The notes below the pieces were generated by a model. That model was not told the DNA's origin, ran no database searches, and saw only the letters and a program-made list of their open reading frames with translations. Source: Polyangiaceae bacterium (GTDB lineage: Bacteria > Myxococcota_A > Polyangia > Polyangiales > Polyangiaceae). From it: a stretch of 64,000 nucleotides of DNA. The stretch spans positions 3,412-67,411 of the forward strand of contig JAICQQ010000018.1 of the NCBI GenBank assembly GCA_025937785.1, given 5' to 3'. The position numbers and the translations under genes are program-made. Positions 32,477 through 50,687 of the stretch are shown here, one piece after another (the stretch's first letter is position 1; each line of letters starts with the position of its first letter).

Positions 32477-33607
32477 CTAGCTGACGTCGGAGAGCAGGGG
32501 GAACCGAATGGTAGCCACCGTTCCTCCTCCGGGCCGGGGAGCGAGGTCCAATGTGCCCCCGTGCTTGTGAACGATCGAGTGCGCGATGCTCAACCCCAAT
32601 CCAGTCCCTTCACCGATGGGCTTGGTAGTGAAGAACGGTTCGCGCACGCGGTCGCGCAGATCCGCGGGGATACCGTGCCCTGAGTCAGCCACCGTGATGA
32701 CGAAGTCCCCCACGTCGCGCGCGGTCGTAAGCCAGATCGTGCCGGATTCGTGGATCGCGTCCATGGCGTTCGCGACGAGGTTCATCACCGCCTGATTGAT
32801 GAGGCTTGGATAACAATCGACGAGGTCCGGCTCGCCAAATTCCGCTAGGATGTCGATTCTGCCCAAGCAGCGGTGTTCGACGATTGTGAGGACGGATTGA
32901 ATGGATTCGCGCATGCTGACGACCTTCCGCTCACCCTCGTCGAGGCGGGAAAAGGTTCTCAGTTTCACGACCAGGTGTTTGATCCGCTGTGCCCCGAGCT
33001 CACTTTCGTGGAGCCGGTTCATTGCTCGGTCAAGCAATTCTGCGGCGGCTACTGTGACGGTCGTCCCAAGTTCCGTGCGGGCGCGCGACAGACACTTTTC
33101 GATGGTCTTGAGGTGCGAGATGATGAAGGCAAGAGGGTTGTTGATCTCGTGAGCGATGCCGGCGACGAGCTCGCCCAGCGAAGCCATCTTGGCCGCCTGG
33201 ATGAGCTGCGTCTGCTTCTGCTTCAGCTCGGTGTTGGTCGTCGCGAGCACTTCGTTCAAGCGCAAGAGCTCGAGGTTGGCCTCCCGGTACCCACGGAAAG
33301 ACATTTCGAAAGGGGACAGGAACTCGCGGTAGAAGTTGGTGATCGCAAGCGCAACGACGGATTGCTCGGCCGGCGACGCCGTCAATACGGCGTCACGAAA
33401 CGCGGCGTCATACAGCAGCAGGACGTCTAGGATGCCGAAGTCCGCGGCGAGCGCTTGCCGGCCGAGATCGTAGGCTCGGCTGAGCGACTCTTCTGTTTCC
33501 TCGTTCAGATGCTCGGCCAGGGCCTGCCTGTAGGCGTGGTCCAAGTTATCGTTCATCGCAGCCCACCATCCGGTATGACGGACGCTTTCCTTCTGCGGGC
33601 CGCTCAC
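32477..33607 (-). CDS. cytoplasmic sensor histidine kinase
   Basis: H-box [17 protein letters not shown]-box [11 protein letters not shown]1 DSGHGIP, G2 GTGLGLSI. No TM segment. The start may be 33556. Confidence 0.9.
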
Positions 33608-33637
33608 GAACTCTGTCGCGCGGACCTTCTTGACGGC

Positions 33638-34057
33638 TCATTGCGACCATTTCTTCATCGTGACCGTGGTTCCAACGCCACATTTCGATTCGAGCTCGAA
33701 CTCATCGACCAGGCGCTTTGCCCCCGGTAGTCCGAGTCCCAATCCGGTGCCGGTCGAATAGCCGTCGCGCATCGCGGCCGCGGGGTCTTCGATCCCCGGC
33801 CCGTGATCTTCGGCGGAGATCAGCAGACCGCGCCGCCCCCCTTCATCGAGGCCACGCAGCAACACCGTACCCTTCTGAGCGTAAATCACGATATTGCGAG
33901 CCACCTCCGAAATCGCCGTCGCCAAAAGCGCCTGATCGGTACTCGAGAATCCCAGCATTCGGGCCAACTCGCGTCCTCGCTGCCGAGCGATGACGATGTC
34001 CCGCTCGCTTTCGATCGGAACGTTGACCTCCGCTGACAGGGACGGTGTCAGCGCCAC
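33638..34057 (-). CDS. anti-sigma regulatory factor-type Ser/Thr kinase (RsbW/SpoIIAB-like HATPase)
   Basis: ISEVARNIVIYA (N-box-like), ISAEDHGPGIED, GTGLGLGLPGAKRLVDEF. 139 aa. Lies 30 nt upstream of the histidine kinase. Confidence 0.8.
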   Translation of the reverse strand: MALTPSLSAEVNVPIESERDIVIARQRGRELARMLGFSSTDQALLATAISEVARNIVIYAQKGTVLLRGLDEGGRRGLLISAEDHGPGIEDPAAAMRDGYSTGTGLGLGLPGAKRLVDEFELESKCGVGTTVTMKKWSQ

Positions 34058-34804: not shown

Positions 34805-36007
34805 ATGAGAATCGTACCTGGAGCCTTGGGCTCAGTGGCCTTTGTTTACGCGACGACGGTCGGCGCAACGGTAGAACCACCGGCCGTTTCGGACGCACGC
34901 AGCGCGGCCCTGGGCAGTACTGGCGTCGCCTACTCCGACAGCGCTGCCGCCGTGTATCACAACCCGGCCGCCCTTTCGGGCGTCGAGCGCGGGCTGGTGA
35001 CGTTGTCCGTGTCACCATTCTTTCCGAAACTCCGCGCCCCGATTGGAGGTACCGAAGAGGACAGCGACCGGGGTTTCTTTCCTATGTTCCTGGCAGGGGG
35101 CGCCTATCGACTGACCGATGAGTTGGTGCTGGGCGTGGCCGCGTACCCGGTGCTGGGCTTTGGCGGCGAATACTCGAATCTCAGCGCCCTGGGGGGTGAA
35201 AGCCTGTCCGTGGCAGCCGCGACCTTCGAAGCGTCACCTGCGGTCTCTTACGCCATCACGGACAGGGTTTCACTCGGGCTCGGTTATCGAGTGACCTACA
35301 TGACTCAGGATGTGCATCAGGTCACCCCCGCGATGGGCCCAGGTGGTGACCCCGTCCTCGTCGCGTCCGACGTGAGCCTCTCCGGTATGAATTTCCTCGG
35401 CGTTCACGCTGGCGTCTTGGCCCACGTTGCCGACGGAACACGCCTGGGGTTGACCTACCGCAACAAGGTGACCATCGACTTGGAAGGAGAGTTCGAGTCT
35501 GCAGGCACCGAGCTCGACGCGAGCTCGGAGTTCGCAGCACCGCACACGTTCAAACTCGGCTTGGCGCAAGAACTCTTGGATGCGCAGCTGATGCTGGCCG
35601 TCGACTTGAAGTACGCGCTGTATGCAGAGTCCAGCGAAACGACATCGACCACCATCGAAGGGATCGGGACCACCGAAACGCCCCTCGATTGGAACAATTC
35701 GCTCGCAGCCGGGCTTGGCGTTGAATACCGATTGGCGAACGACGGGCCTCGGCTTCGACTGGGCTACGGCGCCACGCAAAGCGCCACGTCCGAGGACTAC
35801 CCTCAGCCCTTCCTGGCTCCCCCAGGTTTCATCCATTCCGTGCACGCTGGGGCCGGAGTGCAGCTCTCGGCGTTGGAGCTCGACCTCGGCGGGTTCTACA
35901 TGTGGAGCGGCAGCGAAGTAGAACCTGCCGCGGATTCGGGCGCCGAAGCAGGCGAGTACGCGATCAACGCCTACGTCTTCGCGGTCTCTGCGACCTACCG
36001 CATGTGA
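34805..36007 (+). CDS. FadL/OmpP1/TodX-family outer-membrane channel for hydrophobic compounds
   Basis: GGAGGGA SD. N-terminus ..SAALGSTGVAYSDSAAAVYHNPAAL matches the family signature (G.GGA..A..DA.A...NPAGL). Alternating beta-strand pattern through to the C-terminus. Confidence 0.7.
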   Translation: MRIVPGALGSVAFVYATTVGATVEPPAVSDARSAALGSTGVAYSDSAAAVYHNPAALSGVERGLVTLSVSPFFPKLRAPIGGTEEDSDRGFFPMFLAGGAYRLTDELVLGVAAYPVLGFGGEYSNLSALGGESLSVAAATFEASPAVSYAITDRVSLGLGYRVTYMTQDVHQVTPAMGPGGDPVLVASDVSLSGMNFLGVHAGVLAHVADGTRLGLTYRNKVTIDLEGEFESAGTELDASSEFAAPHTFKLGLAQELLDAQLMLAVDLKYALYAESSETTSTTIEGIGTTETPLDWNNSLAAGLGVEYRLANDGPRLRLGYGATQSATSEDYPQPFLAPPGFIHSVHAGAGVQLSALELDLGGFYMWSGSEVEPAADSGAEAGEYAINAYVFAVSATYRM

Positions 36008-36057
36008 CGGCATGGGTAGGGCGTCTTTTCGCGCCTGCGCAAGGTCGAGGCCATTTC

Positions 36058-37167
36058 GTGAGCCAGCAGCAGATCAAAGGCCAGCGGGTGCGGGTCCTCA
36101 TCGTCGACGATTCAGCCACGGCACGCGTGGCCTTGCGCGGCGCGCTCGGATGCGACCCCAGCATCGAGATCGTGGGCGAAGTCCAGCGCGCCGAGTCGGT
36201 GCTCGCGATGGTCGAGCGGCTGAGACCCGACTTGGTGACGATGGACTTGTATCTGGGTGCTCACAGTGGCGTGGATGTCGCCCGCGAGATCATGCAGACC
36301 CTTCCGACGCCAATCATAATGGTCACGGGGGGCGATCCGAGACACCCAACCCTGGTCTACGATGCGCTCCGAGCCGGAGTGATGGAGGTCGCGGGAAAAC
36401 CTCCGTCGCCTCACCACGCCGACTACGAACACAGCCGCCAAGCCCTCGCGCGCACCGTCAGGACCCTCGCTCGAGTCCCGGTGATTGCCAGACGAAGTGC
36501 ACGGTACCCTGGCGCCCGCGAGTCAACCGACACCTCTGCACCAAAGTGGTCCAGACCGAGCGCGCTGCCAAGCCGGCACCGAGTTCGATCGGACGCGACC
36601 CGGCGTCCCACTCCGCGGCTCATGGTACTCGGCGCCTCGACGGGCGGGCCGCCCGTCCTTTGCCAGATTCTGAGAGGAGTTCCGCGCGGTACTGCCGTGC
36701 CGATCGTCCTGGTGCAACACCTCGCCACGGGGTTCACGGACGGGTTCGCGCGCTGGATGGAGGCTCAGACCGGCTTGAGCGCCGTAGTCGTGCGCGAGCG
36801 TACCCGTCTCGAGGGGGGGCGTATTCACATCGCCGGTGAAGAGCGTCACCTGCAGGTCACCTCGCAAATGTACGTCGAGCCCGACGAAGGCCCCGCCGTG
36901 AACTTTCATCGGCCGGCGATCGACGTACTGTTTCGATCGGCGGCGCGACATTTCGCCGGCGATGTGCTCGCGGTTCTGTGTACGGGCCTCGGCGCCGACG
37001 GGGCCGAGGGCATGCGGGCCCTGTTCGACGCCGGCGCGCGGACGATCGCTCAAAGCTTGGAGAGCTGCGCCGTCGCCAGCATGCCGCGACGCGCCTTGCA
37101 GCTCGGCGCGGTGAAGCGCTGCCTCGCGCCCGAAGAAATCGCCGCCGAGCTCAGGAGCCTTGCCTGA
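36058..37167 (+). CDS. cheB: chemotaxis protein-glutamate methylesterase CheB (REC + methylesterase)
   Basis: REC VRVLIVDDSATARVAL..LVTMDLYLG. Catalytic Ser/His/Asp motifs VLGASTGGPPVL, VLVQHLATGF, TGLGADGAEGM. GTG 36058 avoids overlap with the FadL-like gene. Confidence 0.9.
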   Translation: MSQQQIKGQRVRVLIVDDSATARVALRGALGCDPSIEIVGEVQRAESVLAMVERLRPDLVTMDLYLGAHSGVDVAREIMQTLPTPIIMVTGGDPRHPTLVYDALRAGVMEVAGKPPSPHHADYEHSRQALARTVRTLARVPVIARRSARYPGARESTDTSAPKWSRPSALPSRHRVRSDATRRPTPRLMVLGASTGGPPVLCQILRGVPRGTAVPIVLVQHLATGFTDGFARWMEAQTGLSAVVVRERTRLEGGRIHIAGEERHLQVTSQMYVEPDEGPAVNFHRPAIDVLFRSAARHFAGDVLAVLCTGLGADGAEGMRALFDAGARTIAQSLESCAVASMPRRALQLGAVKRCLAPEEIAAELRSLA

Positions 37168-37206
37168 GCTCGGTTCCGCAGCGCCGCCCTGTGTCCGAAG
37201 ATCTGC

Positions 37207-38184
37207 TCAGCGCTTACCGCGAATGTAGGTCTGCAACGCGTCTGCGGTGTCACGCAGCGAAAGGACGGCCTGCTCTACCTGCCCTGTCGCGGCAGCGGAC
37301 GCTTGGCCTCCCTCCGCCACGTTCATCAAGGCTTCGGAGATCTGTTCGATGCCAGCCGATTGCTGACCAACGGTAGCGGAGATCTGCCGTGCATTGTCCA
37401 CGTTCGTTCCCAGTAGCTGGAGCAGGTCCTTCATTCTCGTGGAGGCCTCGTCCAGGGCGCGCCTGCCCCCCTCGGCACGCCCGACGGCTTTCCAGATGCG
37501 TTGAGCCGACTCGCGACTTTGCTCAGCGAGGCTGCGGATCTCGGAGGCTACGACGGCAAACCCACGGCCGTGCTCGCCCGCCTTGGCCGCCTCGACTCGA
37601 GCGTTGACTGCCAACAGGTTCGATTGGTTTGCGAAGTCGCGAACCGACTCTACGATTTCACCTACTTGACTGATGAGCTCCAAAACCGCACGCGCGTCTT
37701 CGACTGCTTGCATGCCCTGTTCGCCCTTGGTCTGAACGTCCGAGCTCGTGCCCATGACCTCTTGAGCGAAGGCGGCCGCAGCGTTGCTGGTCTCGGTCAA
37801 TTCTCTGATGGTCGCGCTGATCTCGGTGACGGTTGCCGACTGCTGTGCCGCCGTCGCGGCCGTTTCCTTGGCCGTGCCGGACAACTCCACCGTGCTGGCC
37901 AGGATCGCCTCTGCGTGTTTCTCCACGCGGGTCACCACGGTGCGGTACAGCATGAACAGGATGGGTACCGTCACGACAGCGCCCAGGCCGGCTAGACCGA
38001 GCATCGTGCGCAGATCGCCCTCGGCCCCCATGATGAACGTCAAGAGGCAGTTGAAGGCAATCAACGACAGGACGATGCTGAAGAGCCGTGTGGCGAGACC
38101 GCTCCGGAAACGCAGGTACACCCCCCCAACGACGGCTACGAGACAACCAAGCAGGACAACCACGAAGACTGTGTAAGAACCCAT
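37207..38184 (-). CDS. methyl-accepting chemotaxis protein, membrane-embedded minimal type (no periplasmic or HAMP domain evident)
   Basis: AAGGAGA SD before ATG 38184. About 95 aa of closely spaced hydrophobic helices, then a signalling domain with hairpin-tip motif NLLAVNARVEAAKAGEHGRGFAVVASEIRSLAEQS. Confidence 0.9.
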   Translation of the reverse strand: MGSYTVFVVVLLGCLVAVVGGVYLRFRSGLATRLFSIVLSLIAFNCLLTFIMGAEGDLRTMLGLAGLGAVVTVPILFMLYRTVVTRVEKHAEAILASTVELSGTAKETAATAAQQSATVTEISATIRELTETSNAAAAFAQEVMGTSSDVQTKGEQGMQAVEDARAVLELISQVGEIVESVRDFANQSNLLAVNARVEAAKAGEHGRGFAVVASEIRSLAEQSRESAQRIWKAVGRAEGGRRALDEASTRMKDLLQLLGTNVDNARQISATVGQQSAGIEQISEALMNVAEGGQASAAATGQVEQAVLSLRDTADALQTYIRGKR

Positions 38185-38227
38185 ATCAATGTTCTCCTTG
38201 ATGGTCGCCGAGCGACCCGCGGGGCGC

Positions 38228-39724
38228 TCAGCCCGCTCCCCAGAACCGATCGTGCAATGCGACGGTCGCCACACGGTTTCCTTCGAGCACCGAGTCCAGA
38301 AACTGGACGTGCCGTTCGATGCCCGCTCCGCGGACGGTGAATCGCAGTAAACACGCGCGCTCCTCGACGTAGGCCCCGACGGCCTGTTCTAGACGCTGGT
38401 GCGCATGCTCCAGGGCCGTGGCTCGCGGACAGCCTTCCTCCTGGGCGATGCACTCCACCAGGTTGATCTTGCCTTTTCTGGCGTCGCGTTCGGTGGAAAG
38501 AATGTCATTCACCCAGAATATCACGCGAGTGTTCGCCGCCTCGACCCGCTCCAGGGCCTCCCAAGCCTCGGGTCCTTCGATCTCTGCGCCTTCGGTCAAG
38601 CGCCAGAGCTCGATGTAAGGAAAATGGGCGATCAGGTGCTCGCGCTGGACCAGGTACTCGTCGAGCGCCGGAACCCCTCGACCCCGCTGGAGCCACTCTG
38701 CCTCCCATTCGAAGGCATCGAACATGGCCAGCATACGGCGCCGGAATCGATCGAGGGCCACGCCAGGCAGCTCTGCAGCGAGGCGAGTCAGGAAGTTCTG
38801 GGTCGCTCTCGACTCCGGCCGCGGCAAAGGGTCGTTCCCCTGACAAACGCCGCGAACGTCGCGTAGAGTCGATCGCTTGTAGTCGTCAGAAGGAAGATCG
38901 TTGAGGCACAAAAACCAAGCCAGATACTCCGTCGCGAGCTCTATGCCTCGTCGTGTCGGCTTCGGCGCTGAGCAATAACGCGCGTACTCCGCCGCCACCT
39001 GGACATAGCTCCTCCGAGCGAAGCCAGTTTCTTCTACCCAACGCGAAAGGGTACGATTCACGACCTCCATCTCTTCGGTACCCAAAGAGTACAAACGGAA
39101 AGGCAAGGCGCGCACGCCTCTGTCGTCGTCTGTCGTGCTCGGTGAACAGTCAGCGTTATCTCGTTCCTTCATGGCGAACTCCGTATCGTTGGTACTCCAG
39201 CACTCCGCAGCCAGCTTCGAGACTTCGACGAGCGGAAGCGACCCTCCCGGTTCTTGGACGACCGCGACGAGGAATTTCGCAAAGCACACGCCGGCCGCTG
39301 GCTCGTCGACATCCTCGAGGTTCACCGTCAAAACATCGACGACCTCGTCGACTAGGAGGCCCACTCGCCCCCACGCGGTGCCGCAAATCACGATCAGCTC
39401 ACTTGAGGCGATCACATGAGGCTCGCCCTCGAACCGCTGCCGGACGTCGACCACGACAATGCTCGTTCCATGATGGTTCAGTGCGCCGACGACCCACGGC
39501 GCCGACTCCGGAAGCGGCGCGAGCTCGGCTACCGGCACGACCACGTCGACGGATTGGATCGGCAAACCGAACCTCTGCTGCTCCGCGCGGCATACCAGGA
39601 GCGTGATCTTCGTGTCTCCTAGCTGGGTGCGGCCGATCCTAGTCACTAGCTCTCGGCGCAGCCCGACGAGCTCTGCCTGCAAGCTGCCCAGTCGCGCCAG
39701 CAACGCGGCTACTTCTTGCGCCAT
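38228..39724 (-). CDS. CheW domain fused to class-I terpene-synthase-like domain (variant metal-binding motifs)
   Basis: Residues ~38-175: CheW-like (LLVCRAEQQRFGLPIQSVDVVVPV..PWVVGALNHHGTSIVVVDVRQRF..VGLLVDEV). Residues ~205-498 align by eye with bacterial sesquiterpene synthases: LATEYLAWFLCLNDLPSDD vs ..MSWFFLFDDLFD.., DEYLVQREHLIAHFP vs ..YLAMRRHTIG.., VIFWVNDILSTERDARKGKINLV vs ..LLLNDIASLEKEEARGE.N.V. The start overlaps the cheA stop by 16 nt. Confidence 0.75.
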   Translation of the reverse strand: MAQEVAALLARLGSLQAELVGLRRELVTRIGRTQLGDTKITLLVCRAEQQRFGLPIQSVDVVVPVAELAPLPESAPWVVGALNHHGTSIVVVDVRQRFEGEPHVIASSELIVICGTAWGRVGLLVDEVVDVLTVNLEDVDEPAAGVCFAKFLVAVVQEPGGSLPLVEVSKLAAECWSTNDTEFAMKERDNADCSPSTTDDDRGVRALPFRLYSLGTEEMEVVNRTLSRWVEETGFARRSYVQVAAEYARYCSAPKPTRRGIELATEYLAWFLCLNDLPSDDYKRSTLRDVRGVCQGNDPLPRPESRATQNFLTRLAAELPGVALDRFRRRMLAMFDAFEWEAEWLQRGRGVPALDEYLVQREHLIAHFPYIELWRLTEGAEIEGPEAWEALERVEAANTRVIFWVNDILSTERDARKGKINLVECIAQEEGCPRATALEHAHQRLEQAVGAYVEERACLLRFTVRGAGIERHVQFLDSVLEGNRVATVALHDRFWGAG

Positions 39725-41940
39725 CGCTCTCCCCTTCCGTAGAGATGCCGCTCCACCGCGAGCAGCAGCTTGTCATGGTCGAACTGTCCCTTGACCAGGT
39801 ACTCGTCTGCACCCGCCGCCGCCCCCGCCTGAATATCGCTCTCGCGGCCGCGGCTCGTGACGAGCACGATGGGCAGGCCCTTACGCAGGGGGTCCGTGCG
39901 TATGCGGCGCGTCAACTCGAGGCCGTCCATGCCCGGCATTTCGATGTCGCTCAGCAACAGGTCGAACTGCTTTTGCCGTAGCTTGTCCCACGCTTCGACG
40001 CCGTCCACGGCGACCTCGACAGCGTAGCCGGCGGAGGTCAGGATGTTACGCTGCAGCGTTCGCTGGGTGAGCGAATCGTCGACGACGAGAATGCGTAGCG
40101 AGGTCGAAGTAAGTCGGCTGCGCCCGGCCTGACTCGGCGTGGTGGCGGTATTCAGGAACCTCTTGCGCAGCAGAAAGCCGATCTCCAGCGCGATCGCCAG
40201 CGAGCCGTCGTCCAAAACCACCACGCCGTGCATCCCCTGGATGCGCCGAATGTTCCATGGGAGGCGGCGGGTCACGCATTCCTGCTGCTCCAGCACTTCA
40301 TCGACGACCAAGGCCATGCGCTCGCCGGCGCAGTCGAGCACCACCACGTCGAGGTGTCCATGCACGTCCCGGATACGCGGGTCGTCGTCACGCAGTGCCA
40401 ACACAGCGATCGGTTCGGGATCGTTTCCCTCCAGTACGGGAAAGCCGTTGAAGGAGCGCACCTCACTGCGATTCACGCGTAGCGCTCGCTCCACGTAGAT
40501 GGTCGGCAGCATGTAGACCGTGCCATCGACCTTTACCAGCAGGCCCGTTGTCGCCAGTACGCTGACCGGGACCTCGAATCGAAAGCAGGTTCCCATGCCG
40601 CTGCCCGCGGAGCTGAGCGTGCACGTACCTCCGACGGAGGCTAGCTCCTCTCGTACGGCAGCGAGACCAACACCCCGGCCACTGATCGAACTCAGCTCCT
40701 TCGCCGTAGAGAAGCCGTCGAGAAAGAGCAAGTCCAACTTCTCTTGGCTCGTCATGCGCTCGCTTGCTTCTTTGCTCACGATGCCGCGTTCCACCGCTGC
40801 TTTCGCCACCTCGTCGGCGATCGAGCCTTTGCCGTCGTCCCTGATCTCGATAGCGACTCCGCCGCCCGACATGCGGGCGACGATGGACACGGAACCGGCA
40901 TCGGGCTTACCGAGCAAGTGTCGCTCTTGCCAGGGTTCCACGCCATGGTCGACTGCGTTACGTAGCACGTGAACGATTGGGTCGCGGATGTGTTCGAGCA
41001 CGCGCTTGTCCACCGCGGTGTCGCCCACGTCCAGCGTAAGGCGTACCTTCTTGCCCAACGTTTCAGCCGCTTCGCGTACGACCCTGCGCCATTGCGGAGC
41101 GATGGTGGACAGCGCCACCGTGCGAATCTTGTGAATCTCGAGCGTCAGATCGTCGACCACGCGCGCCATGGCGGAGTGCGCTGCGCGCCCGCTGGTCAAG
41201 GCGTGACGCAACATACGCCCAGTAGCTTCGTCGGTGTCGTGACCGCGCGCGACTTCCGTGAGCGATTCGACGTGCTTGCCCCACGCTCCGCGAAGCCTCA
41301 GCAGTTCATCGAGGTGATTGGCGAGCGCGTCCAGGCGCTCGGTGCTTACCCGCAGGTAGTTGTTCGATTGCTCTTGGGGTCCGGGAGCGCTCTCATGGGG
41401 TTCAGCCGCAGGAGACGAAGCATCGGCGCCCGCGAGCGCGGAAGCGTCCGCGGCGGTTCCGCGCTCAGTGCTCGAGGCGCTCCCGCTCTGCCCGCCACCA
41501 TGGTCTCCTACTGGGCCACTGGATCCGTGCATCGACACGGCGGCGTCGCTCTCCTGCGCCACCGACTCGAGTCGTTCTATCAGACGGCTGACCGTCGAAG
41601 CATCGCTCACGCGCGTCTGCTCCGCGAGGCTTTGCATGGCAATCACGGCAGCTTCGAGCACGCGGATCTGCTCTGGATTCGGCAGGGCCGCGCGATGTTG
41701 CAGCAGGGCCAGCACGCTCTCGAAGGCGTGAGCAACCTGGGACAGCTCATTCAAGCCTACTGAGCCGCTCGCGCCTTTCAGATTGTGGGCCAGGCGCATC
41801 GCAGCTCGAATCGTCTCACTCAACCTGGGCCCTTGCGCGCTCGGCAGCTCGGCGATCAAGCTTGCCAGACCATCGAAGAGCTCCCCGACCTCGGAGCGAA
41901 ATGCTTCGATGAGCTCTCGCATCAGGTCGTCGTCTGACAA
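39709..41940 (-). CDS. cheA: hybrid CheA histidine kinase with C-terminal receiver domain
   Basis: HPt (AHNLKGASGSVGL), N-box HVLRNAVDHGVE, G-boxes DDGKG / GRGVGLAAV, CheW-like P5 domain, C-terminal REC (LRILVVDDS..LLLSDIEMPGMDG..LVTS..K). GGAGG precedes TTG 41940. Confidence 0.92.
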   Translation of the reverse strand: MSDDDLMRELIEAFRSEVGELFDGLASLIAELPSAQGPRLSETIRAAMRLAHNLKGASGSVGLNELSQVAHAFESVLALLQHRAALPNPEQIRVLEAAVIAMQSLAEQTRVSDASTVSRLIERLESVAQESDAAVSMHGSSGPVGDHGGGQSGSASSTERGTAADASALAGADASSPAAEPHESAPGPQEQSNNYLRVSTERLDALANHLDELLRLRGAWGKHVESLTEVARGHDTDEATGRMLRHALTSGRAAHSAMARVVDDLTLEIHKIRTVALSTIAPQWRRVVREAAETLGKKVRLTLDVGDTAVDKRVLEHIRDPIVHVLRNAVDHGVEPWQERHLLGKPDAGSVSIVARMSGGGVAIEIRDDGKGSIADEVAKAAVERGIVSKEASERMTSQEKLDLLFLDGFSTAKELSSISGRGVGLAAVREELASVGGTCTLSSAGSGMGTCFRFEVPVSVLATTGLLVKVDGTVYMLPTIYVERALRVNRSEVRSFNGFPVLEGNDPEPIAVLALRDDDPRIRDVHGHLDVVVLDCAGERMALVVDEVLEQQECVTRRLPWNIRRIQGMHGVVVLDDGSLAIALEIGFLLRKRFLNTATTPSQAGRSRLTSTSLRILVVDDSLTQRTLQRNILTSAGYAVEVAVDGVEAWDKLRQKQFDLLLSDIEMPGMDGLELTRRIRTDPLRKGLPIVLVTSRGRESDIQAGAAAGADEYLVKGQFDHDKLLLAVERHLYGRGERWRKK

Positions 41941-42036
41941 TCGACCTCCGCCCTCGCGTCCGGCGTGCCCGCTCCGCGCATTCGATTCACTGCTTCCGTC
42001 ACGCGCCAGGTCTCCGACAGCAGCAGCAACGCGCTG

Positions 42037-42585
42037 CTAAACCTCTGCCCGATCATCCACTATGAGACGTGGATCTTCCAAGAAGCGCTTCGCGTCCAAG
42101 ATGGAAACCAGATCGCTCGAGACGGCTGCGATGGGCCTGCCGGTAGATCCGAGCGTCGCGGCTAGCTCGTGGCTCAACTGATCCTGGCGAAAATCGACGA
42201 ACCCGAGCACCTCGTCCACGAGGACCCCGAGCAAGCCACGAGGTCCCTCCAAGACAGCCAGGGCGCCGGACTCGGCGACGTACGGTGCGTCGAACCAGTG
42301 ACCCAGTTGCGCCACGGAGATCAGCTCTCCACGCACCTGTGCCAGGCCAGCCAACCATCGGGGCGCCTGCGGCACGGGCGTCAGCTTGACGTTGTAAAAC
42401 GCACCCCACAGTGACTCTATCGGAAGTCCGATTCGCTCGGCGCCCAATCGAACCACCACGAATGATAGCACCACCTGGTCCCGATCGAGCGTCAGGGGGC
42501 GAGCGAGTGCCTCGGCGCGACAACGGAGCACCGACGCGTCGCCTTCGGTCAACTTACTCCTTTTCATTCCTGCCAACGGTACCAC
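42037..42585 (-). CDS. cheW: CheW coupling protein
   Basis: 182 aa. FVVVRLGAERIGLPIESL..RWLAGLAQVRGELISV..LGVLVDEVLGFVDF is typical CheW. Confidence 0.85.
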   Translation of the reverse strand: MVPLAGMKRSKLTEGDASVLRCRAEALARPLTLDRDQVVLSFVVVRLGAERIGLPIESLWGAFYNVKLTPVPQAPRWLAGLAQVRGELISVAQLGHWFDAPYVAESGALAVLEGPRGLLGVLVDEVLGFVDFRQDQLSHELAATLGSTGRPIAAVSSDLVSILDAKRFLEDPRLIVDDRAEV

Positions 42586-42658
42586 CTTCGCGCTGCGTGC
42601 GTACGCTCGAATCTCCAGCGCGCCCGAGTCTCACGGAGCAGTCACCGGACTTTGACCA

Positions 42659-43729
42659 CTACTTCGCAATTGCGCCGAGCTGACTTGCGAGCGATGCATT
42701 CACGGAGCATGTACCGAGCGAGGCTGCGCTCGCCAACGCTTGCGCCCCTACCACGGTGCTCAACGCCTCACTGCCGAAGTAGCGCGGTGTTCGGCCATAT
42801 CGAAAGAACGGTGAGATCGCCCACGAGCCGTCCTCGCGGCGTGCGCTCGCGACCACCAAAAGGTCTTCCCCCGCTTGCAGGCCGACGTTGGCACATGCGG
42901 CGACGCGCAGCGCCCGATCGAAGCAGGGCGTATCGGCTCCTTGGCGGTCGAGGAGGCGCTGGCAGAGGGGTTCGAGCAAGGCAGCGCGAGGTCCGGGAAA
43001 GTCACGCGCCAGCCTTGAAACGAAGTACAAGAAGACATCGGGCGAAGGGTAATAGCGTGTCCCGAACAGATACGCGTCGGACTTCAGAAACTCGGTGAGA
43101 CATCGCCACGAAGGCGCCGCTTCTTCGAAGCGCTGAAGTTGACAGAGAAGGTACATGACGTTGGCTAGAACACAGTGGTCGATTCTGCCGCGGTGTTCGG
43201 GGCTCGCTCGATAATACACCTCCAGGATCCCGGCTTCGTTGGTGTTGGTCAGCATGGCGTCTACGCTTTGGCTGACTCTAGTTTCACCGGTGCCGAGTCG
43301 GAGACACAGCGAATGCGCCACCGCGGTGCAATCGAGGTCTGCGTCCAGGAGCGCCCGGTCCTGAAAGAAATGAACGAAGCCTTCTTCGTTGAACGCTCGT
43401 CGCATCAGCTGCAGACAGTTCTCGAGAGTGTCACTCGTGGCACCGGCGTCCATCAGACATTGCGCGATGATCCCCGTCGTAAACACTTCGGGCGGACTGC
43501 GGTACGGTCGAGAGAAGTCTCGATAGTCGGAGAGATAGCTGGGGAATCCAGTCTCCGCGTCGAACTGCCTCTGAATGAATGCCAGCGACTGTTCGAAGTC
43601 TTGCAGGGCGGCGTCATGGCGCGCCGGAACCACCACGCTGTGCTTCGGAGTACCCCGCATTTCCAGCCCCGACATGTAGTACATGATACTCGAGGCGCGC
43701 CTGGCGCGCAGGTCAACAATTCTTGACAT
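42659..43729 (-). CDS. alpha/alpha-toroid (prenyltransferase/squalene-cyclase-repeat, class-II terpene-cyclase-like) protein, tentative
   Basis: LLDADLDCTAVAHSL echoes the class-II cyclase DxDDTA motif. Helix-pair patterns are present (TTGIIAQCLMDAG, CVLANVMYLLCQL, RVAACANVGL), and a repeat-like REDGSWAISPFF lies near the C-terminus. Codons visibly use more A/T at third positions than neighbouring genes. The ORF opens with TTG at 43768; ATG 43729 is the alternative start. Confidence 0.45.
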   Translation of the reverse strand: MSRIVDLRARRASSIMYYMSGLEMRGTPKHSVVVPARHDAALQDFEQSLAFIQRQFDAETGFPSYLSDYRDFSRPYRSPPEVFTTGIIAQCLMDAGATSDTLENCLQLMRRAFNEEGFVHFFQDRALLDADLDCTAVAHSLCLRLGTGETRVSQSVDAMLTNTNEAGILEVYYRASPEHRGRIDHCVLANVMYLLCQLQRFEEAAPSWRCLTEFLKSDAYLFGTRYYPSPDVFLYFVSRLARDFPGPRAALLEPLCQRLLDRQGADTPCFDRALRVAACANVGLQAGEDLLVVASARREDGSWAISPFFRYGRTPRYFGSEALSTVVGAQALASAASLGTCSVNASLASQLGAIAK

Positions 43730-43776
43730 CGCGTGTGCTAGGGCAAGCGTCGTTAGGACTGTCAGCAATGTAGCGG

Positions 43777-43799
43777 CGGTATCCGTTAACGGTATCCGT
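43777..43799. promoter_or_regulatory. candidate operator: direct repeat CGGTATCCGT-TAA-CGGTATCCGT containing the palindrome CCGTTAACGG, in the divergent Che promoter region
   Basis: Two perfect 10-bp repeats with a 3-bp spacer, read directly. They lie between the minus-strand Che operon start (43768/43729) and cheY (43966). Confidence 0.35.
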
Positions 43800-43965
43800 C
43801 ACTCTCGTGCAGCCCGGCAGGCGAAGCTCCAAAAGTCGAACTGGCGCGCGCCAGCGCATGGCGACTCGCTCGCGCGCGCATGAGGTTGGCACCCTAGAGC
43901 CTGCAGAACCAACTTCGTCGCTCTTCACGAAGGCGAAGGGGTGGCCGTTAACCGAGCCAGTAGCC

Positions 43966-44328
43966 ATGGCTCAGGTACTCGTAATCGACGACGATCCGCT
44001 GTTTGCTGCGCTGGTGAAGATTCGACTCACCGCGGCGGGGCACGAAGTCATGTACAACGAGGGCCCCTTCGGTGCGCTCACGGCAGCGCGACACGGAGCC
44101 TACGAGTTGATACTGATCGACGTTCAGATGCCAGGCATAGAGGGCCCTCAGCTCGTCGATTGCTTTCGAAGCAGGGGGAACCCCGGCTTGAGAATCGTCC
44201 TCATGAGCAGCTTACCCGAGCAACAAGTGATTGGGCTGGCGGCGAAGTCTGGCGCGGATGCTGCGTTCTGCAAGACCACCGGTCTCGAGAAGCTCGCGGG
44301 CATCGTCCAGTCGGTTCTCGACAATTGA
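43966..44328 (+). CDS. cheY: single-domain CheY-like response regulator
   Basis: MAQVLVIDDDP...LILIDVQMPGIEG...VLMSS...K. 120 aa. Divergent from the Che operon. Confidence 0.85.
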   Translation: MAQVLVIDDDPLFAALVKIRLTAAGHEVMYNEGPFGALTAARHGAYELILIDVQMPGIEGPQLVDCFRSRGNPGLRIVLMSSLPEQQVIGLAAKSGADAAFCKTTGLEKLAGIVQSVLDN

Positions 44329-44377
44329 GCTCTACGACGCACCTACCATCCTCGGTCAGGGTCCAACGAGACGTGCG

Positions 44378-45655
44378 ATGACTCTATCCACGATGTTGCA
44401 GAGCGCCATCACCAAGCGATTCGGACTGAGACCGAGACACGACTGGGCCAAGAGCATCGAGCAGGCCATCTCGCAGCTGGCGGACGAACGGCAGCTACCG
44501 CGTGCTCGAGTCGAACGTGACCTCCCCGACGATCCAAACCTGCTGCGCGCGGTCGCCGGCAAGCTCACCGTGGAGGAGACGTTCTTCTTCCGCTTTCCGG
44601 TACAGATCGAGCAGGTGGTCGACCACGTGGCTCAGCTCTTGCCCCATCGCCCCCGCGCAGCCGTCACGGTGTGGTCAGCAGGCTGCGCTTCTGGAGAAGA
44701 GCCGTATAGCGTGGCCATGGGGCTTCACGGGCGGCTGGGCGCATTGCCGGACAACCTAGCGATTGTCGGCTGCGACATCAGCGCGGTCGCCATCGAACGC
44801 GCGCGTCGTGGAATCTTCGGGAACTGGTCGTTCCGCGGGGTTTCCGAGCAGATTCGACAGCTCTACTTCGAAAGCTTGCCTGCCGACAAATCCCGCATCG
44901 CGGCGGTTTTTCGTAGCTCGGTGCGCTTCGAGCACCTCGCAATTCACGAGATGGCGCACAGGCTCGGACCGACCAGCGTCGATGTGGTGTTGTTCAGGAA
45001 CGTGGGTGTCTACTTCGATGAGGCTAGCCTCGCGCGCTGCTTCAAGCAGTATCATCGGGCGCTTGCCCCGGACGGTCTGTTGGTGTTGGCCGCCACCGAT
45101 CCGACGCCGCCACCGGAGTTGTTCAAGCGTGTGCGCTCGGATAGCATCGGAATTTATCGTCGCGCCGAGCAGTCCGAAGTCACGAAGTCCCGTACGAAGG
45201 CGCGCACGGTTCCGAGGCCAGCGCCCGATCCGGTCGGGAGGCGTGACGCTATCAGGACATTGCGACCACCACCGGTCGTCGAAGCCTTGGCGCTCGGTGA
45301 TCGCGGCCAGCTCAGCCAGGCGATCGAGGCGGCCGATCGGGCCGTAGCCGGGCACGTCGACGACCCTCACGGTTTCTTCGTGCGCGGGCAGCTGCTGCTG
45401 GCTAGCGGACAGCCGGTCGCGGCCATCGAAGACTTCAGGCGGGTCTTGTTTCTGCGAGCTGATGACAGGCTCGCTAGGTATTGGTACATCGTCGCTCTCC
45501 ATGGGGCACGCGAGGTGGGGCGCCTGGGACCCCAAATAGCCGAACTGCGCCGCCAGCTCGCCGGCGCTCTCGAGGACGAGATCTTGGAGGACGGACGCAC
45601 CTCGGCGAGCGAGTTACGCGCGGCTCTGATCACCTTCGAAGGGCTTTGCGAATAG
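44378..45655 (+). CDS. cheR: chemotaxis protein methyltransferase CheR with C-terminal TPR-like extension
   Basis: CheR N-domain, SAM site VTVWSAGCASGEEPYSVAM, VVLFRNVGVYF. The C-terminal ~130 aa are helical-repeat-like. Confidence 0.9.
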   Translation: MTLSTMLQSAITKRFGLRPRHDWAKSIEQAISQLADERQLPRARVERDLPDDPNLLRAVAGKLTVEETFFFRFPVQIEQVVDHVAQLLPHRPRAAVTVWSAGCASGEEPYSVAMGLHGRLGALPDNLAIVGCDISAVAIERARRGIFGNWSFRGVSEQIRQLYFESLPADKSRIAAVFRSSVRFEHLAIHEMAHRLGPTSVDVVLFRNVGVYFDEASLARCFKQYHRALAPDGLLVLAATDPTPPPELFKRVRSDSIGIYRRAEQSEVTKSRTKARTVPRPAPDPVGRRDAIRTLRPPPVVEALALGDRGQLSQAIEAADRAVAGHVDDPHGFFVRGQLLLASGQPVAAIEDFRRVLFLRADDRLARYWYIVALHGAREVGRLGPQIAELRRQLAGALEDEILEDGRTSASELRAALITFEGLCE

Positions 45656-45697: not shown

Positions 45698-47080
45698 TCA
45701 GTCGTCCTCGGGTCCCTTGCCGATCCAACCTCGGCGCCAGAAGTAGATCAGCATCACGGCGGCGATCGCCAGCATGATCACCAGCAGAGCCGGGTAAGCC
45801 CACGGCACCTTGAGCTCCGGGATGTGCTGGAAGTTCATGCCGTAGACGCCCGCCAGGAATGTCAGCGGAATGAAGATGCTGGTCATGACCGTCAACAGCT
45901 TCATGACCTCGTTCATGCGGTTGCTGCTGACGGACAGGTAGGTGTTGGTGAGCTCCCCCACGAGGTCGCGATACGATTCGATCACTTCGGCAATCTGTAC
46001 GGTGTGGTCGTGCACGTCGCGCAAGAACACCTTGGTTTCTTCCTGAATCAGCGGTGCCGGGTGGCGCAGCACCGCGGCGAGTGCCTCGCGCTGGGGCCAC
46101 ACGGCTCGCCGCAACAACAGCAGGTTACGCTTGTGGCGCTGGAGCTGTTTCAGGCGTGAGGCGGCGGGGCGCTCGATGATCTCGTCTTCGAGCGCCTCCA
46201 GCTCTTCGGCGATCCGCTCCAGCACTGGGTAGTACCCGTCGACCACGGTGTCGAGCAGCGCATAGGCGAGGTAGTCAGCGCCGAAGCGGCGCAACCGGCC
46301 CTCTGCCGGCTGTATGCGCTTTCGCACTGGCTTCAGCGGATCGTGATGGTTCTCGAGGAACGTCAGCACGAACCCGGCGCCCAGGACCACACTGAGCTGT
46401 TCCACGCTGAGGTCGCCGGCTTCGTCGAACGCCACCAGACGAAAGACGAACAGATACTGCAGCTCCTTCTCCTGATCGTGAAGCTGCTCGTAGACCTCCG
46501 CTTTGGGGCGCTGCGGAACATTGACCACGTCTTCCAGCGCGAGTGGGTGGACGCGAAAATGCGTGCCGATGCTCTGCAACAGGTCGACGTCCGCCAAGCC
46601 GCGCACGTCCAACCAGAGCTTGTCGTCCCCGCCAGGGCTGGGGAGCTCGTCCCCGTCTTCGAGAGCGTGCTCCAAGAGCCCCTGCAGGCCGAAGCGGATG
46701 ACGTGCACCTCCGTGGGCTCTGCCTCTTCGGACGCGGCCAGCGTTCCCGGGCTTGCACCCACGGGAGCACGGCGTTTTTTTCTGAAGAGCAACACTGACG
46801 GGCGGGAAGCGTACTCCAGCCGGCGGCGGGTCGGTATGGGCATCAACCCTGGCGGCGAGCCGGTAGGGGTATCGTCTCTCGCGGCGGATGCGGCTCCCTC
46901 TATGTCTGCCAGCAGGGCCGAAGCCGGCGGCCGAAGGCTGCGATCCCGCGGAGCAATTGCAGCCCGAGGATTCGTGTCGCCGTTCGCGGCGGGCGTGGAG
47001 CCACCCGTTGGCGAGCTGGTGCTGGTCGTGGCGCTGCTGGTGATCGCGAGGTCGCGCTTCACTGCTTCTGGATCGGGCAT
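45698..47080 (-). CDS. corA: CorA-family magnesium/cobalt transporter (with Ser/Thr/Pro-rich N-terminal extension)
   Basis: C-terminal FLAGVYGMNF (GMN motif) flanked by two TM helices. Cytoplasmic domain WLDVRGL..HPLALEDV. ATG 47080 keeps high third-position GC; ATG 46843 is a shorter alternative. The ORF part above 47080 is rejected. Confidence 0.8.
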   Translation of the reverse strand: MPDPEAVKRDLAITSSATTSTSSPTGGSTPAANGDTNPRAAIAPRDRSLRPPASALLADIEGAASAARDDTPTGSPPGLMPIPTRRRLEYASRPSVLLFRKKRRAPVGASPGTLAASEEAEPTEVHVIRFGLQGLLEHALEDGDELPSPGGDDKLWLDVRGLADVDLLQSIGTHFRVHPLALEDVVNVPQRPKAEVYEQLHDQEKELQYLFVFRLVAFDEAGDLSVEQLSVVLGAGFVLTFLENHHDPLKPVRKRIQPAEGRLRRFGADYLAYALLDTVVDGYYPVLERIAEELEALEDEIIERPAASRLKQLQRHKRNLLLLRRAVWPQREALAAVLRHPAPLIQEETKVFLRDVHDHTVQIAEVIESYRDLVGELTNTYLSVSSNRMNEVMKLLTVMTSIFIPLTFLAGVYGMNFQHIPELKVPWAYPALLVIMLAIAAVMLIYFWRRGWIGKGPEDD

Positions 47081-47429
47081 GGGCAACTGAAAGGACGCCA
47101 CCACCGGCGACGAAGCAGCCGACGGAACGCTGACAGTCCGAAGCTCGCCACGAATTGCTGGCGCAAGCGGGCACTCGCCACGATTCACGTTCGATGAAGC
47201 TGGGTCACCACGCTGACCCTCGTGGTACTCCACGGCTCTCGAGAATACCGAGACATTCAGATTGCTTCCGCCATGGACGATGGCATTCGGACCTCGTGAA
47301 CCGCCTCGAGGACGGCGTGCGTGGACTGTGAGCGAGCGTGGTCTCGACGTTCGTCGGCTAGCGAGGGTGGTCGCGTGCCGTCTCGTAGGGATTTGTGTCT
47401 GCGCTTGAATCAGGTACGCTTGCCGTGGG

Positions 47430-50400: not shown

Positions 50401-50687
50401 CTTCGGTCGCGGGCGAATTCAGAAACCCCTCGGACTTTGGCCCCGTTCGCGACGCGCAGGCCAAACTCGAGCACGAGGCCGCGGTCGCAAACAGAATTGC
50501 CGAGCTGAAGGCCCAGAACGGCGACAACCTGATCCGGACGGAGCAGGTCCCTTTGAAGCCGGTCCTGCTCCAAGACTTCACGGTGGAGGACGAGAGAACC
50601 TCTCAAGAGCGGGTCGTGCGCGCCACCATCATCTTCACCGATAGCGTGACGAGCCGAACCGTTCTGATCAACACGTTAGCCAAATGA
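47430..50687 (+). CDS. large multidomain protein: two OmpA/MotB-like modules each interrupted by a PG_binding_1-like insert, poly-Pro linker, carboxypeptidase-regulatory-like beta-sandwich domains
   Basis: OmpA-like: MLFDTNKSFLLPSA..LLIVGHTNATGEPDINDPLSEERAESARAYL..FDRRVEFFFF, and FFRTDSAVV..LLIAGHTDTRAPDSFNQPLSEERAEN..NRRVELLFF. Inserts: SLGVDGVAGPETRRQL and EIGVDGSVGPETWGAF. 11 x Pro run. GKIFVRVVQADGS..DPGTYEVDVSKDGF. No N-terminal signal peptide visible. Confidence 0.75.
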   Translation: MFDDDFAFLTSRGDTIRVRVVGGSTAASTREDRARAREALRELRLGILWNFGPVLRAIEQLHRALRGRSTDFSSLQLDAGLAREATYSQLLNDIEEEFELGRLVVSEGAFPLLEVPPEFELGVRERALDIEVPPPLARRAEANENLTLFDVRFVDEVGQPISGVAVEIEAGDRLEKLTTNGAGVALLEDVTSMSASVRLVDVAALEAILDPRWETERSGSAPSGANTTSVVFTGAGLGAVSLKPAVPNTVVIQPPLGKLFVELWDKNGRVLHVGQDYEISGPASLSGTTDEQGRLLHEELLPGDYELALSIKLDPGDGSEVVDTETAKLVVLAPAAAAPQIRMLGVVPHVEMVRLRGMLFDTNKSFLLPSAIEPFRTVRDFYRQSNPSDLLIVGHTNATGEPDINDPLSEERAESARAYLMDDVDAWLGNYDLSGSKRWGSREDGLMLRSLPDFGTKGEAEDSVTWFQRTRSLGVDGVAGPETRRQLITEYMALDGSPFSEEPDLVVLVQIHGAGENFPLKDTGFELDTQAAGSHPDAFDRRVEFFFFEPEFGILPAPAAPNGKEYLNWRERSDLDLDLIAGQVAPTEATVIEVEDVFFRTDSAVVHHSLKCASAFALALIFADTKRDHRLLIAGHTDTRAPDSFNQPLSEERAENSLAVLEGNRARFVELSEARNKVGDHKQILRFLTEQLAFDCDPSQIDDNAFTAVAAVKQFQEQYNARRAALGVPDATEIGVDGSVGPETWGAFFDCYEAFLAGQVSSASDVPGQLEDLKELRTSLAFVDDEKKTLGFGERFPEERPGVDNVASATNRRVELLFFPVDDVPNLEGSLDDSEIYLPGRFKKQQIDPCEEPPPPPPPPPPPVGATKGKIFVRVVQADGSRVTDVAVFLFDRRVGRSQIDFSETSTGEVDFGERDPGTYEVDVSKDGFQGNSQVFDVVAGETSVVTVLVTRIGQSEEGRIVTENVTTVFRTVARQDVSPFVGPFFVVGPPSVAGEFRNPSDFGPVRDAQAKLEHEAAVANRIAELKAQNGDNLIRTEQVPLKPVLLQDFTVEDERTSQERVVRATIIFTDSVTSRTVLINTLAK

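Follow-up and report, generated by a model that had tools for sequence, protein, structure and literature searches.

A conserved chemosensory gene cluster of Polyangiaceae contains a terpene cyclase pair and a FadL-family channel

Why should a set of chemosensory (Che) genes in a myxobacterium enclose two genes for terpene cyclases? The question is raised by nine contiguous genes at 34805-45655 of a 64,000-nucleotide stretch of DNA from an uncultured soil bacterium of the Polyangiaceae (contig JAICQQ010000018.1; the whole stretch is referred to hereafter as the window). By open reading frame (ORF) listing and profile searches, these genes encode a FadL-like porin, CheB, a short methyl-accepting chemotaxis protein (MCP), a CheW::class-I terpene synthase fusion, a CheA with receiver domain (CheA-REC), a further CheW, a class II terpene cyclase, CheY and CheR-TPR. 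An earlier interpretation made from the letters of the window (the sequence-only reading) had listed the same nine genes, and ORF listing and Pfam place all of them exactly where it had put them. It had also proposed that the pathway either senses a hydrophobic or isoprenoid molecule or controls terpenoid synthesis; these were the right two hypotheses to compare, and the evidence leans to sensing, given the orphan MCP of Haliangium-type genomes and a FadL gene found only with Che linkage (both described below). A published description of a Che cluster with terpene cyclases was not found in the literature searched. We read the region as one conserved functional module of a Polyangiaceae sub-lineage, composed of a Che pathway of the alternative cellular function (ACF) type, a terpenoid cassette and FadL. 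In our preferred reading, to which we assign a probability of roughly 0.45, the cyclase pair would make a hydrophobic terpenoid, the membrane-embedded MCP would sense it and FadL would give it passage through the outer membrane.

On the minus strand the genes run, 5' to 3', from the 341-residue cyclase through CheW1, CheA-REC and the 498-residue CheW::Terpene_syn_C_2 protein to the 325-residue MCP; on the plus strand, FadL and CheB lie on one side, and CheY and CheR-TPR diverge on the other (Table 1). Spacing within the minus-strand set ranges from 16-nt overlaps up to about 100 nt, which fits a single transcription unit, and the start/stop overlaps indicate translational coupling. Over the cluster, a promoter and terminator consensus scan (sigma-70 consensus) returned nothing above chance and Rfam returned no match.

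Relatives of the cluster, identified here by L numbers, came from looking up gene neighbourhoods, from scanning one genome for each GTDB species and from mapping with tblastn and hidden Markov models. About 12 Polyangiaceae/Myxococcales lineages carry the gene set, arranged in three orders that are termed types A, B and C, and the arrangement is therefore more than chance; the sequence-only reading had named beforehand, as its own possible refutation, a gene combination unique to this genome. In the minimal type C, locus L019 has cheW, cheY and fadL (←cheW←cheY←fadL) upstream of the astC-synthase-mcp trio, and the shorter L083 contig shows the trio only. Identities to the window fall as low as 42% for the AstC-like cyclase, 27% for the synthase and 60% for the MCP, and the Che-linked AstC-like cyclases form one clade in a rough neighbour-joining tree. 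The ratio of nonsynonymous to synonymous substitution (dN/dS), computed against an 80%-identical relative (dS about 0.6), was 0.02-0.25 in all ten coding units, indicating purifying selection: the MCP (0.02) and CheY (0.017) are the most constrained, FadL stands at 0.10, and the synthase (0.17) and cyclase (0.135) are under constraint similar to that on CheA (0.145). Conservation through rearrangement, together with these ratios, led us to reject chance juxtaposition. Besides the main CheR-TPR, type B loci have another CheR-like gene with TPR, divergent in sequence, between cheY and fadL (Pfam CheR 2e-15; L023:7337-8707, L022:7264-8667 and the start of L024).

The 341-residue protein, described earlier as a toroid, has no match in the Pfam-A or NCBIfam profile libraries, and its family was recognised solely via PDB sequence search and structure. 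Its best match by phmmer against PDB sequences was AsDMS, of the AstC/drimenol-synthase family (E = 9e-32). The putative general-acid motif DLDCT (116-120) aligns with DLDTT of AsDMS, with D146 (ORF numbering) corresponding to AsDMS D323, while RGRID (165) and GTRYYP (208) cover AsDMS R368, R370, R415 and Y416; D323 is the general acid of AsDMS, and the latter four residues bind the diphosphate (PMC12232559). Across 15 homologues, D116, D118, C119, T120 and G208, R210, Y211, Y212 are invariant, and orthologs carry the precomputed annotation PF28380 (AstC-like_C). An AlphaFold2 model (pLDDT confidence 87) matched AsDMS (9m7d/9mhs) in Foldseek with E = 1.5e-18, a TM-score of 0.80 and a root-mean-square deviation of 2.2 Å, followed by MstE and SsDMS, and has the α/α-barrel fold of a β-domain. 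Judged from alignment and model, the protein is a class II cyclase of the AstC/AsDMS family that keeps the predicted general acid and all four diphosphate-binding residues.

Profile and PDB sequence searches found no HAD phosphatase domain in the cyclase, which therefore belongs to the stand-alone β-domain type, like an enzyme of Sorangium cellulosum. The Sorangium enzyme converts farnesyl diphosphate (FPP) to a cyclic sesquiterpenyl diphosphate without Mg2+, and its product becomes an alcohol only after a phosphatase is added (bioRxiv 10.1101/2025.09.20.677545); cyclisation of FPP to a drimenyl-type diphosphate has been demonstrated for homologues only (PMC12232559; bioRxiv 10.1101/2025.09.20.677545). 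With AsDMS/AstC (HAD-TCβ) and the Sorangium mono-β-domain cyclase, the protein shares the β-only fold, the DxD(T/C/V)T acid motif and the Arg/Arg/Arg/Tyr site, pointing to Mg-independent chemistry. Unlike AsDMS/AstC, it has no fused HAD phosphatase; its constant neighbour is instead a class-I-type synthase gene, and the pair sits inside a Che cluster. A weak SQHop_cyclase_C match (1e-4) comes from a partial gene at L083:3-842, which lies upstream of the AstC-like gene and may encode a second cyclase-like protein.

The neighbouring synthase occupies the C-terminal 314 residues of the fusion, and a PDB sequence search matched it to T-muurolol synthase (8e-11). This half is modelled by AlphaFold2 with pLDDT 85-95, and Foldseek aligned it to bacterial class I synthases with TM-scores of 0.80-0.85 relative to the target (0.75-0.85, again relative to the target, for T-muurolol, epi-cubenol and pentalenene synthases). 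The two terpene-cyclase signatures that had been read from minus-strand genes are thus borne out as class I and class II folds by profile, PDB sequence and structure searches combined. A failure of profile and structure searches to recover such folds was the other refutation that the sequence-only reading had named, and neither of its two refutations came about. The profile searches proposed at the time found CheW and Terpene_syn_C_2, and left the toroid protein with no local Pfam match. The proposed AlphaFold and Foldseek comparison recovered both folds.

In the numbering of the fusion, the synthase motifs are NDLPSDD (275), QREH (360), NDILSTERD (406) and RF (492). The first departs from the Asp-rich consensus DDxx(D/E): NDLPSD stands opposite DDQCDE of T-muurolol synthase, N89/D90 are conserved across the synthase clade and there is no acid at the fifth position. 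A canonical first motif is present in the synthases of L016, L019, L060 and L072. The second motif, NDILSTERD, keeps the Asn and Ser and has Asp for the terminal Glu, a replacement that is invariant across the clade; the pyrophosphate-sensor R175 (QREH) and the C-terminal R307 (DRF/DRY) are invariant in 23 sequences. The type C synthase of L019 is fully canonical (DDVCD, NDLFSFEKE) and occupies the same gene slot, and the ND/NSD variant is also found in Che-less cyclase-synthase pairs (L080, L084). These two observations mean that the odd motif was not invented for signalling, and by the sequences compared the NDLPS change is older than the Che linkage. On the same grounds we rejected, as the main explanation, the idea that ND for DD marks a sensor pseudoenzyme made for Che, and we treat the synthase as a putative enzyme of uncertain chemistry.

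Is this pair of enzymes peculiar to the Che cluster? About 25 loci that lack che genes have a synthase-like ORF next to a stand-alone AstC-like gene, and their hosts include Nannocystaceae, Kofleriaceae and many members of Streptomyces, Kitasatospora and Actinomadura. Flavobacteriia have the cyclase fused to HAD instead. This recurrence indicates that the cyclase and the α-fold protein are a pre-existing two-enzyme unit whose members work as a pair, with the α-fold partner plausibly handling the cyclic diphosphate. The pair looks like an uncharacterised two-enzyme cassette and could provide the partner enzyme that the study of the Sorangium mono-β-domain cyclase lacked. It recalls the class II and class I pairs of labdane-related biosynthesis, in which a prenyl diphosphate is first cyclised by protonation and the resulting cyclic diphosphate then passes to an α-fold enzyme, and differs from them in a class II member that is β-only rather than βγ and a class I member without DDxxD. 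At L082:980-4866, an ABC transporter adjoins an AstC-like gene and a pair of synthase-like genes, one of which has DDMPE as its first motif; this is a possible export-linked version of the cassette.

In Haliangium-type genomes (L062, L065/66, L071), an orphan MCP stands beside the same cyclase pair, whose cyclase is 28-35% identical. The MCP, the synthase-like gene and the AstC-like gene are all that these genomes share at the locus, the flanks being unrelated; the synthase is the least conserved of the three (31-38%, versus 63-68% for the MCP and the AstC-like protein), and none of CheA, CheW and CheY lies near the trio. The MCP has an N-terminal domain of 5-6 transmembrane helices and no periplasmic domain. 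We consider this association of an MCP with the cyclase pair to be independent of the Che-linked clade. The synthase-like protein at L071:7715-9310 ends in a tandem (HTGA/HTGE)n peptide repeat.

The sensory components of the window point to an ACF-type pathway. The canonical Che parts named in the sequence-only reading are confirmed: the MCP signalling domain, CheA, CheW, CheB and CheR all score above Pfam cut-offs with NCBIfam support. CheR-TPR and hybrid CheA-REC mark pathways of the ACF type (PMC3447774), and by its parts list the cluster would be one of these. CheA ends in a receiver (Response_reg 9e-28), P2/P3 gave no Pfam match, and orthologs are 48-82% identical; the Hpt motif HNLKG and the receiver Asp residues are readable in the sequences; CheR-TPR orthologs are 420-426 residues long, and CheY is 98% identical in L003. 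The MCP has three predicted transmembrane helices by hydropathy (residues 6-24, 34-52 and 61-79) within its first 80 of 325 residues, no Pfam match to HAMP and no periplasmic domain; the remaining ~245 residues form the cytoplasmic signalling coiled coil. The earlier description of a receptor lacking a periplasmic sensor therefore holds, and its description as mostly membrane helices does not, since the helices are confined to residues 6-79. The protein aligns over 238 residues to Tar positions 262-507 and is 34H/36H-like by length alone. Among orthologs, the cytoplasmic part is 60-96% identical, the transmembrane part is variable outside one cytoplasmic loop, GLAT(R/K)L, and invariance extends to the QQ methylation-type sites (TAAQQSAT); taken with CheB and CheR, these sites indicate that the adaptation system is functional. 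In each of the three gene orders, mcp lies directly downstream of the synthase gene and cheY adjoins astC/fadL.

The outer-membrane protein had been assigned to the hydrophobic-compound channel family, and its Toluene_X match (4.4e-24; 85 bits against a cut-off of 29.7, profile positions 28-420 of 421) agrees. Its hydrophobic N-terminus ends in an AxA-like site, as read from the sequence. All three cluster types keep FadL, at 45-88% identity, and it occurs in 0 of 61 non-Che AstC-like loci. FadL-family channels are known for uptake of hydrophobic molecules (PMC7728783, PMC9938287).

The CheW2::synthase fusion is the least conserved aspect of the locus. The fusion protein is identical on three contigs, from the metagenome-assembled genome (MAG) GCA_036519315.1, the Logan assembly of SRR25158301 and an 88.6-kb contig, and a search of 5.8 billion clustered proteins returned it solely from contigs of the source organism. 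A homologue search returned four proteins for the full fusion and five for the synthase half alone, indicating a narrow clade; a metagenome scan with a reduced synthase alignment returned two loci, and among the 150 best-scoring matches listed from 1.84 billion representative proteins there was no second CheW+synthase fusion. The nearest relative (80% identity) has cheW2 and the synthase as separate genes, with a 17-nt overlap between the stop of the one and the ATG of the other, and in the next (58%) the two genes are 36 nt apart; CheW2 orthologs are separate genes of 181-188 residues, and in the window the first 16 nt of CheW2 overlap the end of cheA. Compared with the 80% relative, the window lacks one base in a GGG/GG run, which joins the frames, and the synthase ATG with its upstream GGAG is still present at the junction. 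The CheW::terpene-synthase of the sequence-only reading is accordingly a single 498-residue ORF, and at the same time a recent lineage-specific event, the relatives having two coupled genes; conservation lies in the gene set rather than in the fusion. The fusion hints that physical closeness of CheW2 and the synthase is tolerated, or existed before the two were joined. The CheW half of the AlphaFold2 model of the fusion has pLDDT ~30, and no domain-domain geometry is readable.

How, then, might these parts work together? In the preferred reading of synthesis and perception, the β-only class II cyclase would protonate FPP or a longer prenyl diphosphate to give a bicyclic drimenyl-type diphosphate, a step suggested by the conserved catalytic residues and the characterised Sorangium homologue. 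The class-I-type synthase, with its non-canonical ND...P/NSD metal site, would remove or ionise the diphosphate to leave a hydrophobic terpenoid, which would partition into membranes, cross the outer membrane via FadL (by release and/or re-uptake from neighbours) and act as the cognate signal for the transmembrane-only sensor part of the MCP. Through CheW1 and CheW2 the MCP would set CheA-REC activity, CheY would carry the output to some target, and CheB (QQ deamidation, then demethylation) and CheR-TPR would give adaptation; the 1-nt deletion that fuses CheW2 to the synthase in the source genome would put the enzyme at the signalling array. An input role for the terpenoid is favoured because the synthase gene is always directly upstream of mcp, even in minimal type C, and because Haliangium-type loci keep an orphan MCP beside the enzymes, as expected if the receptor senses their product. 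The restriction of FadL to Che-linked loci suggests that it came with sensing rather than synthesis, which fits a role in perception. More tentatively, and on balance doubtfully, social Polyangiaceae and, independently, Haliangium-type lineages might use a self-made cyclic terpenoid as a chemosensory signal, with synthesis, FadL passage, MCP receptor and CheB/CheR adaptation in one module for gradient sensing in aggregation or kin communication, and with the synthase mounted on the array via CheW in the source genome.

Several points weigh against synthesis and perception of a terpenoid. The Che-linked examples are all uncultured MAGs or metagenome contigs, and the MCP ligand is a candidate terpenoid only, proposed from gene context. 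The transmembrane region is the least conserved part of the receptor, which could mean that there is no specific binding site; co-diversification with the ligand is the alternative. The synthase lacks canonical DDxxD and its catalytic competence is putative. By chemical reasoning, moreover, class I ionisation would work poorly on a drimenyl-type diphosphate, which is homoallylic, so that either it is hydrolysed by the partner or a longer compound, for example geranylgeranyl diphosphate, is the true substrate. The constant adjacency of cheY to astC/fadL is what a model of output control predicts, and in the sister locus L021 a lone receiver gene stands divergent beside the astC-synthase pair. 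Finally, the CheW2::synthase coupling and fusion suggest a synthase on the array, which a simple signal-synthase model does not need.

In a rival reading, the Che pathway would sense some other cue, such as membrane state via the transmembrane-only MCP, and would control terpenoid production or export. Phosphorylated CheY or the state of the array would act on the cyclase pair, and FadL would bring the product to the outer membrane or across it. Such a system would resemble M. xanthus Che7 with its desaturase. The adjacency or co-transcription of cheY with astC/fadL in all three orders and the lone receiver of L021 agree with it, as does a coupling to CheW2 that places the enzyme where kinase state could affect it, and a variable transmembrane region with no recognisable ligand domain fits a sensor of physical state. 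We nevertheless judge output control unlikely: Haliangium-type loci pair the cyclases with an input element, the MCP, in the absence of CheY, CheA and CheW; FadL-family channels are known for uptake (PMC7728783, PMC9938287); and by Pfam neither enzyme has a receiver or other regulatory domain. The coupling to CheW2 can also be taken to mean that the class-I-type protein is not primarily an enzyme and serves as a cytoplasmic ligand-binding module docked via CheW2, which would bind FPP or the non-ionisable bicyclic diphosphate, relay active-site closure to CheA and so report isoprenoid metabolic state. This would explain why the first Asp-rich motif is replaced (ND..P) while the sensor Arg, the N-S-D triad and the C-terminal R(F/Y) are kept, and why the protein is fused to CheW2 in the manner of a Rosetta stone in the window and its gene overlaps cheW2 in L003. 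It would also suit a cyclase product that a class I site could bind and, on chemical grounds, hardly ionise. It is distinctly improbable given that the ND/NSD variant was not created for sensing, being shared with the Che-less pairs L080 and L084, that L019 has a canonical synthase in the same position and that the fusion is a single recent event; it also leaves FadL unexplained.

Could the terpene genes and fadL simply be passengers, and the fusion a sequencing artefact or a neutral frameshift? The fusion does come down to a single-base difference in a GGG/GG run, seen only in contigs of the source organism, and the three assemblies that show it may share reads. Against this stand the identical fusion protein on three separately assembled contigs, linkage kept through three gene orders while AstC identity falls from 100% to 42%, the independent recurrence of the MCP association in Haliangium-type loci, purifying selection on all genes and the translational coupling indicated by overlapping starts and stops, and we regard the absence of any functional link as scarcely credible.

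Among known systems, the cluster is like the M. xanthus Che4/Che5/Che6-type modules described by Moine et al. 2014 (PMC3945109), and like ACF pathways such as Pseudomonas Wsp (PMC3447774), in its CheA-REC without recognisable P2/P3, its CheR-TPR, CheB and single-domain CheY, and its two CheW proteins of ~180-200 residues with N-terminal extensions. It is unlike Che4/5/6 and Wsp in its 325-residue MCP with three transmembrane helices, where theirs have HAMP and/or periplasmic regions, and in its two terpene cyclases and fadL, where theirs have neither biosynthetic enzymes nor an outer-membrane channel. FadL-mediated uptake of long-chain acyl-homoserine lactone signals in Sinorhizobium (PMC9938287) is a precedent for a FadL-family channel that admits a hydrophobic signal across the outer membrane; here the receptor is an MCP, not a LuxR-type protein, and the proposed ligand is self-made. 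CheV and other CheW-domain fusion proteins likewise have an additional domain behind CheW, at the C-terminus, where it would stick out from the baseplate of the array; in the fusion of the window this domain is a 35-kDa Terpene_syn_C_2 fold and not, as in CheV, a receiver. Chemoreceptor genes can stand beside genes that metabolise the sensed compound, as with NahY. The M. xanthus Che7 cluster, with its desaturase Des7 and HEAT-repeat protein Cpc7, is another myxobacterial Che cluster with a lipid-modifying enzyme and a non-Che partner; its Mcp7 is cytoplasmic, its CheA has no receiver and its enzymes are different ones, with no terpene chemistry, FadL or CheW fusion.

The flanks of the window hold no isoprenoid precursor or tailoring genes, and in the flanks examined (~27-34.8 kb and 45.7-53.8 kb of the window) there are no flagellar or type IV pilus genes; they encode Glu dehydrogenase, peroxiredoxin, an RsbW/RsbU_N-type kinase pair, CorA and OmpA-like proteins. 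The kinase pair, an RsbU_N+HisKA+HATPase_c kinase and an RsbW-like HATPase_c_2 protein at 32477-34057 (-), adjoins fadL; it flanks the cluster in L009 but not in L003/L013 and is therefore probably outside the module. Between it and the peroxiredoxin gene lies a 510-residue ORF with no Pfam match (30558-32090, +). Downstream of the cluster are a CorA Mg2+ transporter ORF at 45698-47638 (-), whose ~330-residue N-terminal extension has no domain match and whose true start may be later, and large OmpA/CarboxypepD_reg-domain proteins of 1085, 635 and 635 residues at 47430-50687, 51845-53752 and 53756-55663 (+), with a 385-residue ORF without Pfam match between these genes.

Table 1. Features of the cluster in the window, gene orders of Che-linked relatives and related loci. 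Positions are those of the window unless a locus is given.
Feature	Position or loci	Strand	Basis or arrangement
FadL/TodX-family outer-membrane channel, 400 aa	34805..36007	+	Pfam Toluene_X 4.4e-24; signal-peptide-like N-terminus
CheB methylesterase/deamidase with REC, 369 aa	36058..37167	+	CheB_methylest 5e-51 + Response_reg; NCBIfam CheB 2e-83; start ~36058 per NCBI MAG gene call (L001), ORF reaches back to 35902
Short MCP, 325 aa	37207..38184	-	Pfam MCPsignal 3.5e-26
CheW::synthase fusion ORF, 498 aa	38228..39724	-	CheW 2.3e-21 (residues 42-172) + Terpene_syn_C_2 3.8e-25
Class-I-type synthase moiety of fusion, from internal Met185	38228..39172	-	Pfam Terpene_syn_C_2 3.8e-25
CheW2 moiety of fusion: N-terminal helix + CheW domain	39173..39724	-	Pfam CheW 2.3e-21
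Fusion junction NDTEFAMKERDN	39161..39181	-	DNA alignment of window, L003 and L009
Hybrid CheA-REC: Hpt, HATPase_c, CheW-like P5, C-terminal receiver	39709..41940	-	Pfam; NCBIfam CheA
CheW1	42037..42585	-	Pfam CheW 7e-18
Predicted stand-alone β-domain class II terpene cyclase, 341 aa	42659..43684	-	PDB phmmer, AlphaFold2/Foldseek; ORF extends to 43768
Divergent intergenic region, astC-like operon (-) versus cheY-cheR (+)	43685..43965		Promoters presumed, none recognised by consensus scan
Single-domain CheY, 120 aa	43966..44328	+	Pfam Response_reg 1e-14
CheR methyltransferase + C-terminal TPR, ~425 aa	44378..45655	+	Pfam CheR 2.4e-34 + TPR_16 4e-07; ORF extends to 44231
Type A cluster	window, L003, L009, L013, L017		cheR←cheY← / →astC→cheW1→cheA→cheW2→TS (terpene synthase)→mcp / ←cheB←fadL
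Type B cluster	L014, L022-24, L081		cheY→cheR-like→fadL→astC / ←cheB←cheR-TPR / →cheW1→cheA→cheW2→TS→mcp
Type C cluster	L019, L083		astC→TS→mcp
Haliangium-type trio	L062:6515-10873; L071:6310-10909; L065:6130-10510		MCP divergent from synthase-like→AstC-like
Non-Che cyclase-synthase pairs	L016, L026, L027, L029, L052, L055-L058, L060, L064, L067, L069, L072, L075, L076, L078, L080, L082, L084

If the preferred reading is true, the cluster would be, to our knowledge, the first chemosensory pathway genetically tied to terpenoid biosynthesis, and in its MCP bacteria would have a first candidate chemoreceptor for a terpenoid of their own making. Stand-alone β-domain class II cyclases would have their probable native partner in a class-I-type synthase with a non-canonical metal site, a pairing seen in about 25 further loci of Myxococcota and Actinomycetota, and the natural CheW-enzyme fusion would offer a handle on protein docking at receptor arrays. 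Because synthase pair, channel and receptor are all identified in one module, it would become testable what bacterial terpenes are for, a long-standing question, and whether myxobacteria sense self-generated lipophilic or diffusible cues by Che.

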